Positions 1,184 to 9,643 of a stretch of DNA of 58,844 nucleotides are shown here, in pieces. Location: positions 1 through 58,844 of the forward strand of contig CALRCM010000002.1 in the NCBI GenBank assembly GCA_943354555.1, read 5' to 3'. The notes under the pieces are model-generated. The model was not told where the DNA came from, ran no database searches, and saw nothing but the letters and a program-made list of their open reading frames with translations. A program made the translations under genes and the position numbers. This DNA comes from Candidatus Peribacteria bacterium. GTDB taxonomy: Bacteria > Patescibacteriota > Gracilibacteria > Peribacterales > Peribacteraceae. Numbering within the stretch: the stretch's first letter is position 1; each line of letters starts with the position of its first letter.

Positions 1184-2341
1184 ATGCCTCATCATCAGAA
1201 TAATGTCCCTCCGTTTCTTTCAGCAGCACAATCTCTGGGAGAGGCTTCCGATGTTTCTCGTACGCAGATAGCTGCTTCAACAGAAAATTTTACCGATCAG
1301 TATCATGATGCGATGCGTGCAAACGATGCTTTGGTTGATATTCGCGTGCGGACTGAGCAGATTGTACGAGAGGGAAGAGAATACTTGGATGAGGCAAAGT
1401 TGCTCCTCCAGCAACTTGGTGTCGATACCCAAGCTGCGGAGGCGAAGGTCCGGGATATTCGTAAGGATCGTGAAGAGTCACTGATGACAGAGGATTATGA
1501 GCTACTTGCGCGATACTCTTCCGACATTGCCGAGCTTCTCATCCAAAAAGGCAAACTTAGTATTGGTGGCCGAACGGAATCTGATCGCAAGAAATTTTTT
1601 GATACGACAAAGGAAAAGTTGGAAAAGTTCGATTCTGGTAAATATGTGGTAAAAGTGCTTGGGTGGGATGTCCTTTGTGGTCTCCTGCAAAAGCCATACG
1701 ATCAAGCCGAGTGTCAAACTCTGAAGGACTCCGTACTAGCCGCAGCTGCATCAGATGGCAAAATGTCCGCACAGCGAAAAGTAACATTTAAGCATGAAGT
1801 ACGTGATGTCTTTGACTTTATCAAAGCCCTCTCAGGTCACATTGGCGATGCCATTCCACTCTCGGAGCGCTCGGTCTACGGCATGCTCGGTAGAGTGCTT
1901 CCAGCAGCCGAGAGAAAAGAAGTATTTGCAGGAAAACTCGATGCCTTGAGAAGTATCCCGTCAGGCAGTGTGGAACTGGTTTTTGCGGATGCTCACGAAC
2001 ATTTTTATCATGAGCAGGGACAGAATGATCTTCCGCAGACCGTCCTTGATCGTCTGTCTGCAGCTATGCCATCGCGTATACTGATGGTTCACTATCGCAC
2101 AGATGATGATGTACGAGAGCTCTTTAAGGATCTCAGCGACAATCAGCACATTTCCGGTCCAAAGCGCGGCAATGAAACGATCAACGTCATAGTGGAGGGG
2201 ATCTCCGGCAGTGACGACGTGAAGATCAGAGGAGGAAATCCGAACAAGGCTGAGCTTCTCGCTACGCCAATGAAAGTCTTTGCCCATGGGATCCACTTCC
2301 ATCGGTTGGGTCAGCCGAAACCCACAAATTCCAAACCATAA
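1184..2341 (+). CDS. hypothetical protein, 385 aa (ORFan operon gene 1)
   Basis: Long ORF directly downstream of the promoter-like element. Opposite-strand ORFs are short and fragmented. No family recognised. Confidence 0.7.
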   Translation: MPHHQNNVPPFLSAAQSLGEASDVSRTQIAASTENFTDQYHDAMRANDALVDIRVRTEQIVREGREYLDEAKLLLQQLGVDTQAAEAKVRDIRKDREESLMTEDYELLARYSSDIAELLIQKGKLSIGGRTESDRKKFFDTTKEKLEKFDSGKYVVKVLGWDVLCGLLQKPYDQAECQTLKDSVLAAAASDGKMSAQRKVTFKHEVRDVFDFIKALSGHIGDAIPLSERSVYGMLGRVLPAAERKEVFAGKLDALRSIPSGSVELVFADAHEHFYHEQGQNDLPQTVLDRLSAAMPSRILMVHYRTDDDVRELFKDLSDNQHISGPKRGNETINVIVEGISGSDDVKIRGGNPNKAELLATPMKVFAHGIHFHRLGQPKPTNSKP

Positions 2342-2368
2342 GATCATTATTTCTCTCCTCTCTTTCCC

Positions 2369-8500: not shown

Positions 8501-9643
8501 GATGTCACATGGAATTCTACAATGAATACAATTCTTAATTACGTTTCACCCGATAGCTGGACGTATCCCCGTATTACTTCCTTTGCCGATCTTGGGTCAC
8601 TCTTCGGCAGCGAAGTGTCGGAAAGGGGGGGGGTAGATAGGTGGCATGTATTGGCGAGGATGTTTCCAGCTTGGCAGACTGCTGGGTTTGAGACGACTTT
8701 GCATCCTAGGGTGAAAGCCTATCAAAATGCCTTTGCTCGCTTGCGTAAAGATCTCCCCTCAGCACTTTCCAATAATCAAGTGAGCGCTCTGGAGAGTCAA
8801 CTTTCCTTGCGTATGGCAAATCGTGCGCTTGAAGGCATGCTGATTACCCATCGTAAAGACGGTGACTCTACGCCAGATCTATTACAAGACCGAACGGTTT
8901 CTCTCACTGAGCAGAAAAATCTGGCAACATACTTCGATGCTATGTTTACGGAAGTCATGGGAAAGCGACCTGAGGATGTGAATGCCCATGTAACTCTTCC
9001 GGATGCCATTGATAATGCCAATAACCTTGTAGGATCAGCAGCTAATATTGTACTGGACCCACTGAAACCAATCACAGATTCTATTGCTGCACTTCCAAAG
9101 GAAATTCGGGCGCTGTTCAATGGAGTTCCCAGCGATAAACTTGAGAGTTTCTTGGAGCAATATAATATGATTGCTGGATATTCCTTTAATCGCAAAAATG
9201 CTGGTTTGAGAGTGAGGGCAATTGATGATGGTACAAAGGTTCGGATTATTATGCCTATATGGGATCCAAAAATCGGAAATGCACCGTATCCAGCAAATGC
9301 AACTCTTATAAGTGATAAATATCCCATTGAAAAAACTCTAGAAGAATTCTTGGACGCGCAATCGGAGGATTTGATTAAGGAATGGAGAGATAATGCTTTT
9401 AAACGTAAATCACTGGAAATGTCCAATGTTATAGGATCGTTTGGAAAATTACATTTCCGCCTACAAGGCGAAGTTGTTGAACTAAGTACAGAAGATACAT
9501 TTAGTAGCAATGAGCATATTGCCCGCATCTCTGTTTATGCATTTAGCAGTAACGACTCTGATTCTATTAAAAATGCCTATACTTTATGGAGAAATCAGGG
9601 TGTACAGAAGTGTTTAAGTGATCCTGATCTTCCGGGAATGTAA
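5552..9643 (+). CDS. large hypothetical protein, ~1,363 aa, with central double hydrophobic hairpin (operon gene 5; start uncertain: 5531 GTG, 5552, 5573 or 5690)
   Basis: Uninterrupted 4.1-kb ORF. ATG 5552 overlaps the upstream stop (5559-5561). Hydrophobic segments lie at about nt 7186-7230 and 7264-7318. A G9 tract sits at 8625-8633. Confidence 0.8.
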   Translation: MDLIFFVMYHIFSRLPAFSSEREHRLCAKAPEGLDGAHATLTAQERMKKNPELARFMTLYDDPLLRAEYKELDNKHRFDRAAFMSMLLDSALQTNEPLESVKRADIDALDPLGLVSLDNEALGQWLIDNVSKDVRKQIDADTENGLRLAELFRDAVSRATKQWTAGEKISEQDRFLLRIPLDHYRKVRTQTDAALAPHGVLVPGLESDGLKDFGDNNLDRREYFVLLNLVSRGEITKDILERVAKEKGVNGVRLLARAADVVSGQIAALQEFADAGDSQSIEFTLANSVVQESLNPDHIPQEFTDLLLMPVQIALAKRTPPLSITYNGDRWEVANRDATLVVPKDTSLRGSLSRSRQLYGNLSFQELGPQETLKSMGFRIGPDTQRAYIRLRRGQDPDFGVATEQEAGEDAIPAFTLQPGETAAAWERTPARALEFFDKFLVGENDATVRFKSSLKYHFGMTDNEKKDFDDLVKEGKATKPMDKENTLAALRVSIQVLMEADEVITQGKAQYQQLRERMNIGESIEDQVKNVWEYMKDIQSHPLGSSLAWVAAYVAIKKTWSFINSEHKNFTNLLFFGGVGGLALGLYQKHRTGDAWWEGLSKNMQGFFGREKKLSPQEQTLPNYWHDELKLGGAQEQICLSVLQDQPAGTLLDWYGRVEQQMIAPQNGKREKIEKAPFRIDPKLLDNFPKSGGGSVDREKVSIAFYQVLRKFFENRGSAARKEMPEFAQSTGIADDAGLGYMYIRERYLEKKYFTRVTEGVIRYGAITVEGKTIRNWDPEDPDLKRIEESNPTLYAELQKVHHGYFQETRERRTADWEMSYIFMQEANPEILRRQGTGGAEAAGYLDVFANKSKEFLQSVNVFAEPPKDKAEGVDLYNKGNDAEKNILGQLSNQRMLEPEKHLSSTADIAQEWDAFIERFPADADAREKLKNYMSAYLDTHDPVTLETMNLIEQKKQQLLILANKSSNRLNAEALNSLDPQNDVTWNSTMNTILNYVSPDSWTYPRITSFADLGSLFGSEVSERGGVDRWHVLARMFPAWQTAGFETTLHPRVKAYQNAFARLRKDLPSALSNNQVSALESQLSLRMANRALEGMLITHRKDGDSTPDLLQDRTVSLTEQKNLATYFDAMFTEVMGKRPEDVNAHVTLPDAIDNANNLVGSAANIVLDPLKPITDSIAALPKEIRALFNGVPSDKLESFLEQYNMIAGYSFNRKNAGLRVRAIDDGTKVRIIMPIWDPKIGNAPYPANATLISDKYPIEKTLEEFLDAQSEDLIKEWRDNAFKRKSLEMSNVIGSFGKLHFRLQGEVVELSTEDTFSSNEHIARISVYAFSSNDSDSIKNAYTLWRNQGVQKCLSDPDLPGM

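Follow-up and report, generated by a model that had tools for sequence, protein, structure and literature searches.

Gene order, distribution and transcription signals of the module

The 58.8-kb contig of a Candidatus Peribacteria bacterium that was analysed here (the window; all coordinates are positions in it unless a relative's locus is named) carries close to its left end five open reading frames (ORFs) on the forward strand, which are labelled A to E in the following. Genes A (1184-2341, +, 385 aa), B (2369-2563, +, 64 aa), C (2593-3225, +, 210 aa), D (3309-5561, +, 750 aa) and E (5573-9643, +, 1356 aa) follow each other closely, with gaps of 27 nt between A and B, 29 nt between B and C and 83 nt between C and D. 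These same-strand ORFs and gaps had already been described by a first-pass annotation that a model had made from the DNA sequence without database searches, which, however, placed the start of E at ATG 5552 and thus let E overlap D by 10 nt. Because all E homologs align from ATG 5573 (with M1, E16, R18, L19 and C20 invariant) and the gene call of the source begins there as well, this overlap is unsupported, and D and E are separated by an 11-nt gap, as in the relatives. The host is a bacterium of the candidate phyla radiation (CPR; Peregrinibacteria/Peribacteraceae) and the genes are lineage-specific, in agreement with the CPR-like origin that had been suspected.

Comparison with the loci of relatives (L001, L004, L008, L013, L015, L016, L019 and L021) showed that the five genes form a family-wide, chromosomally fixed and selectively maintained module, which has a conserved D-E core and promoter and contains no known domains. 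The order A-(B)-C-D-E recurs at one chromosomal site in more than ten divergent Peregrinibacteria (Peribacteraceae) lineages, between rny (on the opposite strand) together with an LTD-nuclease gene on one side and carA on the other. The synteny for which the annotation had proposed to search is thus present, and its description of the genes as ORFans does not hold, since D has 39 representative relatives. These were retrieved by an exhaustive HMMER search with a D profile, are the only ones among 1.84 billion and include none with a Pfam domain. In a word-indexed search E found only itself, D six relatives with 38-73% identity and A a single one with 85%; homologs of E were recovered through the neighbours of D, through family hidden Markov models (HMMs) and through a metagenome scan with the E profile. 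According to the family HMMs, each D-family gene is directly followed by a gene of the E family, including those loci in which D can hardly be recognised, and in every lineage this E-family gene sits -4 to 27 nt after D. Copies of C were linked across seven lineages by jackhmmer, B is found in four or more (with homologs in L001, L004, L013 and L019) and A in at least five, including L004, L008, L019 and L001, the last with 85% identity.

All named genome records of the relatives belong to Peregrinibacteria or Peribacteraceae, save that of protein P0004. This partial D homolog, 58% identical, lies on a 2.8-kb contig labelled 'Candidatus Nanoarchaeia archaeon' in NCBI, and because every other labelled relative is from Peregrinibacteria, the contig is probably mis-binned.

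The closest relative of the window, L001, was used for dN/dS estimates and DNA comparisons; L001, L002 and L003 are one strain (at least 99.97% identical), so that this trio offers no within-population variation of E. Between the window and L001, dN/dS amounts to 0.12 for A, 0.30 for B, 0.37 for C and 0.15 for D, which indicates purifying selection on these four genes and, together with the conservation of the ORFs, rules out that they are spurious. For a confident match to a characterised family, the products of A to E were scanned against Pfam, NCBIfam, PADLOC-DB 2.0 (seven proteins), PHROGs and PDB sequences, and a structural model of D was additionally compared with PDB and BFVD by Foldseek. 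Save for a marginal match of B to PF09720, these libraries returned nothing beyond noise: the sole PADLOC-DB hit, MTase_II, had an E-value of 0.019 at 12 bits, and PHROGs gave noise only. The module is undescribed as a system, and none of its components is assignable to a known family, as the annotation had also stated from inspection of the translations. Nothing in the literature describes the A-E cluster. A mobile origin is excluded, as a tblastn search of the module against 50,697 phage records found nothing and no relatives occur in plasmid records and IMG/VR contigs.

The annotation had treated the cluster as one operon behind a single sigma-70-like promoter. A candidate for this promoter is indeed present upstream of A (1130-1157, +; TTGTAA and TATAAT with a 16-nt spacer, matching the consensus at 10 of 12 positions), in an AT-rich intergenic region of 69 nt, and would serve A, B and C. 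It is not the only one, however, because D is preceded by an extended -10 promoter (TGGTAGAAT, 3290-3298, +) 10 nt from its ATG. The spacer upstream of D is 68-93 nt long in all lineages, and in all ten of the spacers that were aligned the columns T-x-TG-x-TA-x-AAT are invariant, with a conserved (A/T)AGA-TTT-ATG further downstream. In a scan of both strands of 13 loci (~230 kb), the arrangement of TGnTAnAAT, 5-17 nt and the ATG of an ORF of at least 60 aa preceded D in 13 of 13 lineages. Only one gene other than D shows it, that of a VirD4/TrwB-like coupling protein (53204-55684, -, 826 aa), 44 kb from the module, whose extended -10 element (TGATATAAT, 55699-55707, -) lies 14 nt from the ATG. 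The bare TGnTAnAAT motif shows no enrichment in the window, where 6 sites occur and 7.5 would be expected; the evidence for the promoter is therefore its conservation, not its frequency. Since D-E has its own conserved promoter, the cluster consists of two transcription units, A-B-C and D-E.

Transcripts usually start 6-8 nt downstream of the -10 element, and as this element ends about 10 nt before the ATG of D, the D-E mRNA is predicted to be leaderless or nearly so, with a leader of only a few bases. Translation of E is probably coupled to that of D, judging from the spacing of the two genes. The N-termini of D are rich in Asn and Thr and use A-rich codons in all loci (3309-3350 in the window), even at about 20% identity elsewhere in D; examples are MADTTTNTTP in the window and MINTNTNF and MIVNTNTL in relatives. 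This bias may be due to the demands of initiating translation on a leaderless mRNA, and not to a constraint on the protein.

Between C and D, no consistent terminator was found in the lineages compared, the window and most others being without one, so that read-through from the A-B-C promoter into D-E is possible. A convincing hairpin with a U-run (8-bp stem, UUUUU) occurs in L013 only, at positions 1575-1631 of that locus and directly before the conserved promoter; the separation of the two transcripts may differ among lineages. At the other end of the module, the hairpin noted by the annotation was confirmed as a perfect inverted repeat with an 11-bp stem (AACACCCCACA-9 nt-TGTGGGGTGTT, 9654-9684, both strands) between the stop codons of E and a convergent gene. 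It has no T-tract on either strand and was not called by the terminator scan, which demands a T-run, and it is a candidate for a bidirectional terminator of the kind that lacks this tract.

Divergent haplotypes and their exchange

Module genes and housekeeping genes tell different histories when the window, L001 and the two loci L019 and L016, which are close relatives by their housekeeping genes, are compared. Between the window and L001, the identities are 70% for the LTD-nuclease, 85% for A, 80% for B, 63% for C and 78% for D, but 37% for E. Between the window and L019 they are 46% for the LTD-nuclease, 25% for A, 31% for B, 27% for C, 22% for D and 36% for E, against a housekeeping baseline of 84% for carA. 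Between L001 and L019/L016, the LTD-nuclease is 45%, A 25%, B 31%, C 25%, D 25% and E 50% identical, and rny as the baseline 86% (L001 and L016). The proteins A to D are thus only 22-31% identical across pairs whose carA or rny are 84-86% identical; D is 41-46% identical among lineages in which rny is only about 70% identical.

These values define mixed combinations. The window joins a type 1 A-D to a type 1 E, L001 a type 1 A-D to a type 2 E, and L019 a type 2 A-D to a type 2-like E, and the closest relative of the E of L001 is that of L019 (50%). On shared columns, the window's E is 37% identical to that of L001 and 34% to that of L004; for D, the corresponding values are 81% and 43%. The DNA similarity between the window and L001 spans base 23 to base 5493 and then ends, and the tail of D in L001 (...KKFWAWGTSTSTPLFRN) resembles the tail in L019 (...RKFWQWGTTKTSPLFK) and not that of the window, which places one breakpoint inside the last ~20 codons of D. 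At fourfold-degenerate sites, counted in columns with identical residues, the divergence between the window and L001 reaches 0.71 +/- 0.03 in E, where saturation would be 0.75, compared to 0.30-0.50 in five neighbouring genes. Close relatives have therefore exchanged the locus, in whole or in part, and divergent haplotypes coexist. The explanation that E simply evolves fast was rejected, because the core of E is better conserved than D at depth (25-30% against 21% identity in the deepest divergences) and because synonymous divergence approaches saturation in no other pair than that of the window and L001.

The persistence of the E core is one of several observations that would suit a family-specific housekeeping complex of the membrane or the cytoskeleton, acting in shape, division or membrane remodelling, with the mosaic structure as a by-product of neighbouring surface genes. 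The fixed site beside rny and carA in all lineages, the strong purifying selection and the strictly conserved regulatory element fit such a role equally well. Housekeeping complexes rarely tolerate replacement by highly divergent versions, however, and here versions with 22-37% identity have been swapped where the flanking proteins are 84-86% identical. Moreover, D and E types are mixed, with type 1 D accompanying E of type 1 or type 2, and a family of 39 representatives in 1.84 billion is very small. We therefore regard a housekeeping function as improbable; even if the module had only this function, it would still offer new folds and a clear case of promoter conservation that outlasts protein similarity. 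Divergent, recombining haplotypes beside near-identical housekeeping genes are usual at loci that face another organism. As the evolutionary pattern of the module is typical of such loci, it is a concrete candidate for studies of host or phage interaction in this as yet uncultivated lineage.

Protein features and neighbouring genes

None of the products of A to E has an N-terminal hydrophobic segment or export signal, and in this respect the annotation, which had found no signal peptides, was right. The proteins contain 0-3 cysteines each (0-1%), compared to up to 4% in the neighbouring exported proteins. Because of the missing export signals and the few cysteines, A to E are most simply regarded as cytoplasmic or membrane-associated and not as surface-displayed. 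The surface or host-interaction apparatus that had been suggested is thus supported only indirectly, by the hypervariable interval with its exported and membrane proteins, which fits an external partner. No paralogy was detectable between D and E or between A and E, and the window contains no extra copies of the genes.

Four parts can be distinguished in E: a His-rich N-terminus with the motif E-x-R-L-C, an N-terminal domain, a core, which is better conserved than the rest of the protein, and a C-terminal region variable in length and sequence. In the alignments, the N-terminal motif (5573-5632, +) reads M-x-H-x-H and then a near-invariant E-x-R-L-C (E16, R18, L19, C20). Residues 451-750 are the best-conserved part in all pairwise comparisons, and within them lies an amphipathic helical hairpin (residues 537-581; 7181-7315, +) that is conserved in seven lineages. 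Two hydrophobic segments of about 15 aa are joined by a short polar turn and flanked by aromatic-rich stretches (VWEYMKD ... GLYQKH..G.AWWE ... EQTLPNYW). The double hydrophobic hairpin reported by the annotation is thus real and conserved but weak, with internal Lys and Arg residues and a Kyte-Doolittle mean over 19 residues (KD19) of 0.4-1.7. This marginal hydrophobicity would allow the hairpin to span the membrane, to act as a re-entrant or peripheral wedge or to be buried as a pair of helices; we regard it as a putative membrane-docking element.

No Pfam domain was identified in E, nor in its C-terminal region when this was scanned in six lineages, and a search of PDB sequences gave no significant match; hits to a J-domain (E 0.04) and to IL-6 (E 0.07) were dismissed as noise. 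DUF6973 was likewise rejected, as the E of L021 scored 23 bits, below the gathering score, and the match was not reproduced in 12 N-terminal domains.

Protein D is all-alpha with about 30 helices in an AlphaFold2 model from a 38-sequence alignment (mean predicted local distance difference test (pLDDT) 82.7, predicted template modelling score (pTM) 0.78), in which residues 1-23 and the C-terminal tail, residues 704-750, are disordered. Foldseek searches with this model gave best E-values of 0.5 in PDB and 0.48 in BFVD, with template modelling scores below 0.12 overall and below 0.1 in PDB, and a profile search found no match among PDB sequences; D is thus predicted to adopt a fold that has no known structural neighbour in PDB or BFVD. 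A first model (7-sequence alignment, pTM 0.35) was poor, and its Foldseek matches to IpaD and ESX-3 (E at least 1) vanished with the confident one; a sequence match to the TPR region of OGT (PDB, E 0.09) was noise. The low-complexity linkers that had been pointed out are present, namely PATPATPATP in D and a Lys-rich tail in C. The C-terminal tail of D (5418-5558, +) is basic and aromatic and modelled with low confidence (pLDDT below 50 for residues 704-734), and is a candidate membrane-binding segment. In many of the distant D relatives, which are 800-1000 aa long, a strongly hydrophobic stretch precedes the C-terminal end by some 40 aa.

A contains a conserved C-terminal region with HYRTD-DV...PMK and has no match in Pfam or NCBIfam and no significant one among PDB sequences; a hit to lysozyme (E 0.0075 over 48 residues) was considered noise. 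C is mostly of low complexity; a single motif, KF...RSLF.GRIGS..TLSGRLFHW.G, about 50 aa long, is conserved, and the C-terminal tail is basic and Lys/Glu-rich. C also lacks a significant PDB sequence match, that to ribosomal P1 being noise. B is acidic and helical with a duplicated LSPEEKAxLAE motif. Its residues 30-56 match PF09720 at 27.0 bits (Pfam cutoff 23.3), but these 27 residues cover half of the 54-position model, and the corresponding NCBIfam model TIGR02574 gives 19.4 bits at a cutoff of 31.9. Both models are named 'putative addiction module component' and share with B the helical LSxEEKxxLaexL motif, but they differ from it in that B has no toxin partner: Pfam and NCBIfam revealed no toxin domain in its neighbours A and C. 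As no RelE-, ParE- or PIN-type toxin is adjacent and B is embedded in the order A-B-C-D-E, B is probably not a type II toxin-antitoxin component, and the match reflects a common helix motif.

Large, signal-less, all-alpha proteins, one of which has a two-lobed, moderately hydrophobic stretch of about 45 aa in its centre, and the small, helical and acidic product of a gene beside them call to mind exported effectors or translocators. D and E, and perhaps C, would then leave the cell by a non-Sec route, the E hairpin would insert in a host membrane and B would act as chaperone. The conserved N-terminal motifs of D and E could serve as targeting signals, the basic C-terminal tails of C and D would be compatible with such a route, hypervariability fits host interaction, and the VirD4-like coupling protein 44 kb away shares the promoter-to-ATG arrangement of D. 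No secretion ATPase or channel was found in or beside the module in any lineage, however, and all matches to type III secretion system (T3SS) proteins were noise (IpaD with the poor first D model only, T3SSipB at 0.0014 in one of 12 E N-termini). The strong C-terminal transmembrane (TM) segment of the distant D relatives is, moreover, typical of proteins kept in the membrane of the producer. Overall, export of D and E appears doubtful to us.

Upstream of the module, the window begins with the 3' part of a gene for an LTD and staphylococcal-nuclease protein (1-1114, +; PF00565 SNase, E 3e-13), which is cut by the contig start. By tblastn, it is from base 23 on 69.5% identical to the C-terminal 364 aa of an 847-aa protein in L001. 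In eight of nine lineages the module is preceded by the gene of an LTD-domain protein, and in the relatives this protein is secreted. In L008, the LTD protein and A are separated by four tandem paralogous genes (4090-7347 of that locus, -) that are not found in the window; the products of three of them begin with M-x-x-K-P-x-T-P-A-D-T-E-L-L-R-D-L.

Downstream and convergent with E lies a gene for a 251-aa protein with two N-terminal TM helices (9722-10477, -), of which position and architecture are conserved. Proteins of this kind, with two to four N-terminal TM helices and a soluble domain, are encoded convergent with E in the window, L001 (16564-17283), L004 (7657-8448) and with it L008, L019 (9783-10739), L015 (9493-10317) and L021 (12585-13175), without detectable sequence similarity between the copies of any lineages. 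They are either extremely diverged orthologs or the result of repeated non-orthologous replacements at one position. As the copies are unrelatable in any lineage pair, they cannot be shown to track the type of E.

The interval from the LTD-nuclease gene to carA, in which exported and membrane proteins are encoded, varies extremely even among close relatives. Besides the module, it contains in the window a Cys-rich secreted protein with a signal peptide (10657-11229, -, 190 aa, 8 Cys; weak homologs in L004, L008 and L019), an overlapping Phd/YefM antitoxin-ParE toxin pair (11508-12031), a DUF5615 protein (12492-12872), a 2559-aa protein (13311-20990, +), an NYN-domain protein (22764-23267) and a further secreted protein; toxin-antitoxin modules, exported proteins and the giant protein had been noted next to the module by the annotation as well. 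The 2559-aa protein has no signal peptide and no Pfam domain. It starts with MHTYSSFFGGEWRSGERRLVF, resembling the conserved N-terminus of E (M-H...E-R-R-L-C). A regular expression for such starts, defined post hoc, matched only the E family and this protein among 2024 candidate starts, and hhalign paired residues 12-22 of each with an E-value of 0.13. A shared targeting motif is possible but unproven.

The same setting invites comparison with phage defence. An abortive-infection-type module, in which A to D as cytoplasmic sensors and scaffolds would control E and the E hairpin would insert in the cell's own membrane on activation, would agree with the lack of export signals and with a hairpin whose hydrophobicity is conditional, as in the latent membrane effectors known from many defence systems. 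It would also suit the variable interval with its Phd/YefM-ParE, DUF5615 and NYN genes, and the exchange of deeply divergent haplotypes between close relatives could reflect an arms race with phage. On the other hand, no PADLOC match and no nucleoside triphosphatase, nuclease or sensor domain was recognised, no relatives occur on phages or plasmids, and the module sits at the same site in every sampled lineage, not patchily as is usual for defence systems. We consider this function unlikely.

Further to the right, the backbone of carA and purN-like, oxidoreductase and F420-ligase-like genes matches that of L004. rpoC (28636-32610, +, 1324 aa) is followed by ORFs at the expected positions of rpsL and rpsG and by fusA, but it is not preceded by rpoB: the upstream genes (26195-28600) are short, some of them lie on the opposite strand, and an ORF of the size of rpoB does not occur anywhere in the window. 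Such a split rpoB/rpoC arrangement is unusual in bacteria. A 400-aa protein (49893-51095, +) combines SLH and sortase domains, which is an unusual fusion in one protein; its domain content indicates a Gram-positive-type envelope with an S-layer.

Possible function and comparison with known systems

In the interpretation that we tentatively prefer, although we give it somewhat less than an even chance, the inner side of the membrane carries a complex of D and E that is assisted by A to C, tied to envelope proteins and exposed to diversifying pressure from a host or from phages. A near-leaderless mRNA would yield D and E at a fixed ratio, translation of E being coupled to that of D. D would attach to the cytoplasmic face of the membrane via its basic and aromatic C-terminal tail, which corresponds to a true hydrophobic anchor in the distant relatives, and E via its conserved amphipathic helical hairpin. 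The small, acidic, helical B and the disordered, Lys-rich C might, together with A, function as accessory or assembly factors that are expressed from the upstream promoter. The complex would act with the envelope proteins encoded around it, i.e., the LTD-nuclease upstream and the 2-TM protein and the Cys-rich secreted protein downstream. Its specificity would be under diversifying pressure from an external partner, either the host cell of a presumed episymbiont or a phage, and this would account for the persistence and recombination of divergent haplotypes.

Several observations weigh against such a complex. The D of the window itself has no hydrophobic tail, and the E hairpin is below the usual thresholds for TM segments and might instead be two helices packed inside a soluble protein. 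The link to the envelope neighbours is guilt by association, and there is no sign of a co-transfer of the convergent membrane gene with E. In addition, the hypervariability could result from hitch-hiking with neighbouring surface genes and not from selection on A to E. Finally, the L004/L008 pair has no excess divergence of the module (D 96% and E 95% on shared columns, compared to 90% for carA), which indicates that the exchange is episodic.

A more far-reaching idea is that the module might be the cytoplasmic-membrane part of a new cell-contact apparatus of Peribacteraceae episymbionts, made of new folds, in which the interchangeable D/E versions and the flanking exported proteins would set the host range under frequency-dependent selection. 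We hold this to be a long shot; if true, the haplotype would determine to which host cells the bacteria attach or on which they feed. A large part of bacterial diversity belongs to the CPR, whose lineage-specific genes mostly have no assigned role. To our knowledge, the molecular basis of CPR life on other cells is almost unknown. Against this background, five blank ORFs have become a defined family-wide module with a fixed order, a conserved promoter, a predicted D fold that is unmatched and putative membrane-docking features.

Among the known systems, the T3SS translocon operons (e.g., ipgC-ipaB-ipaC-ipaD of Shigella) and the chlamydial Inc proteins resemble the module in anatomy only. They share with it a run of signal-less all-alpha proteins, of which one carries a two-lobed hydrophobic stretch in its centre, along with a small, helical protein of acidic character, but there is no similarity in sequence or fold and no secretion apparatus near the module. 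The T3SS translocator families gave no Pfam match for D or E, apart from the T3SSipB noise mentioned above, and T3SS genes are absent from the 58.8-kb contig. T3SS translocators are two to three times smaller than E. Inc proteins are recognised by about 40-60 aa with two segments of TM strength, compared to which E has a 45-residue hairpin of two segments with the KD19 of 0.4-1.7 and the internal Lys/Arg given above; Inc domains are more hydrophobic. Furthermore, the envelope of the host of the module is of the Gram-positive type with sortase and SLH domains, and a T3SS is not expected in a single-membrane cell.

Defence islands and abortive-infection systems are similar to the module in their variable, toxin-antitoxin-rich location, cytoplasmic proteins, marginal hairpin and fast turnover by horizontal exchange. 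The module differs from them by its fixed syntenic presence, by the lack of a PADLOC match and of enzymatic or sensor domains, and by its absence from mobile elements. To phage structural or tail modules, A to E show no likeness in PHROGs, phage genomes and IMG/VR, nor does the D model in BFVD. Polymorphic toxins are not a suitable model either: no toxin domain was found in the C-terminal region of E from six lineages, and the gene downstream of E is convergent.

The closest parallel in terms of organism is provided by other Peribacteria genomes, which encode large exported, often Cys-rich proteins that vary between strains (Anantharaman et al., 2016; PMC4736985). The A-E cluster is not mentioned in that study. 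The module comes from the same bacterial group and lies in an interval that encodes envelope proteins as well and differs sharply between close relatives. Unlike the proteins of those sets, A to E are without signal peptides and almost without cysteine. The variation of the module consists in the swapping of homologous, deeply divergent versions in a fixed order, and not in a turnover of different genes by gain and loss.

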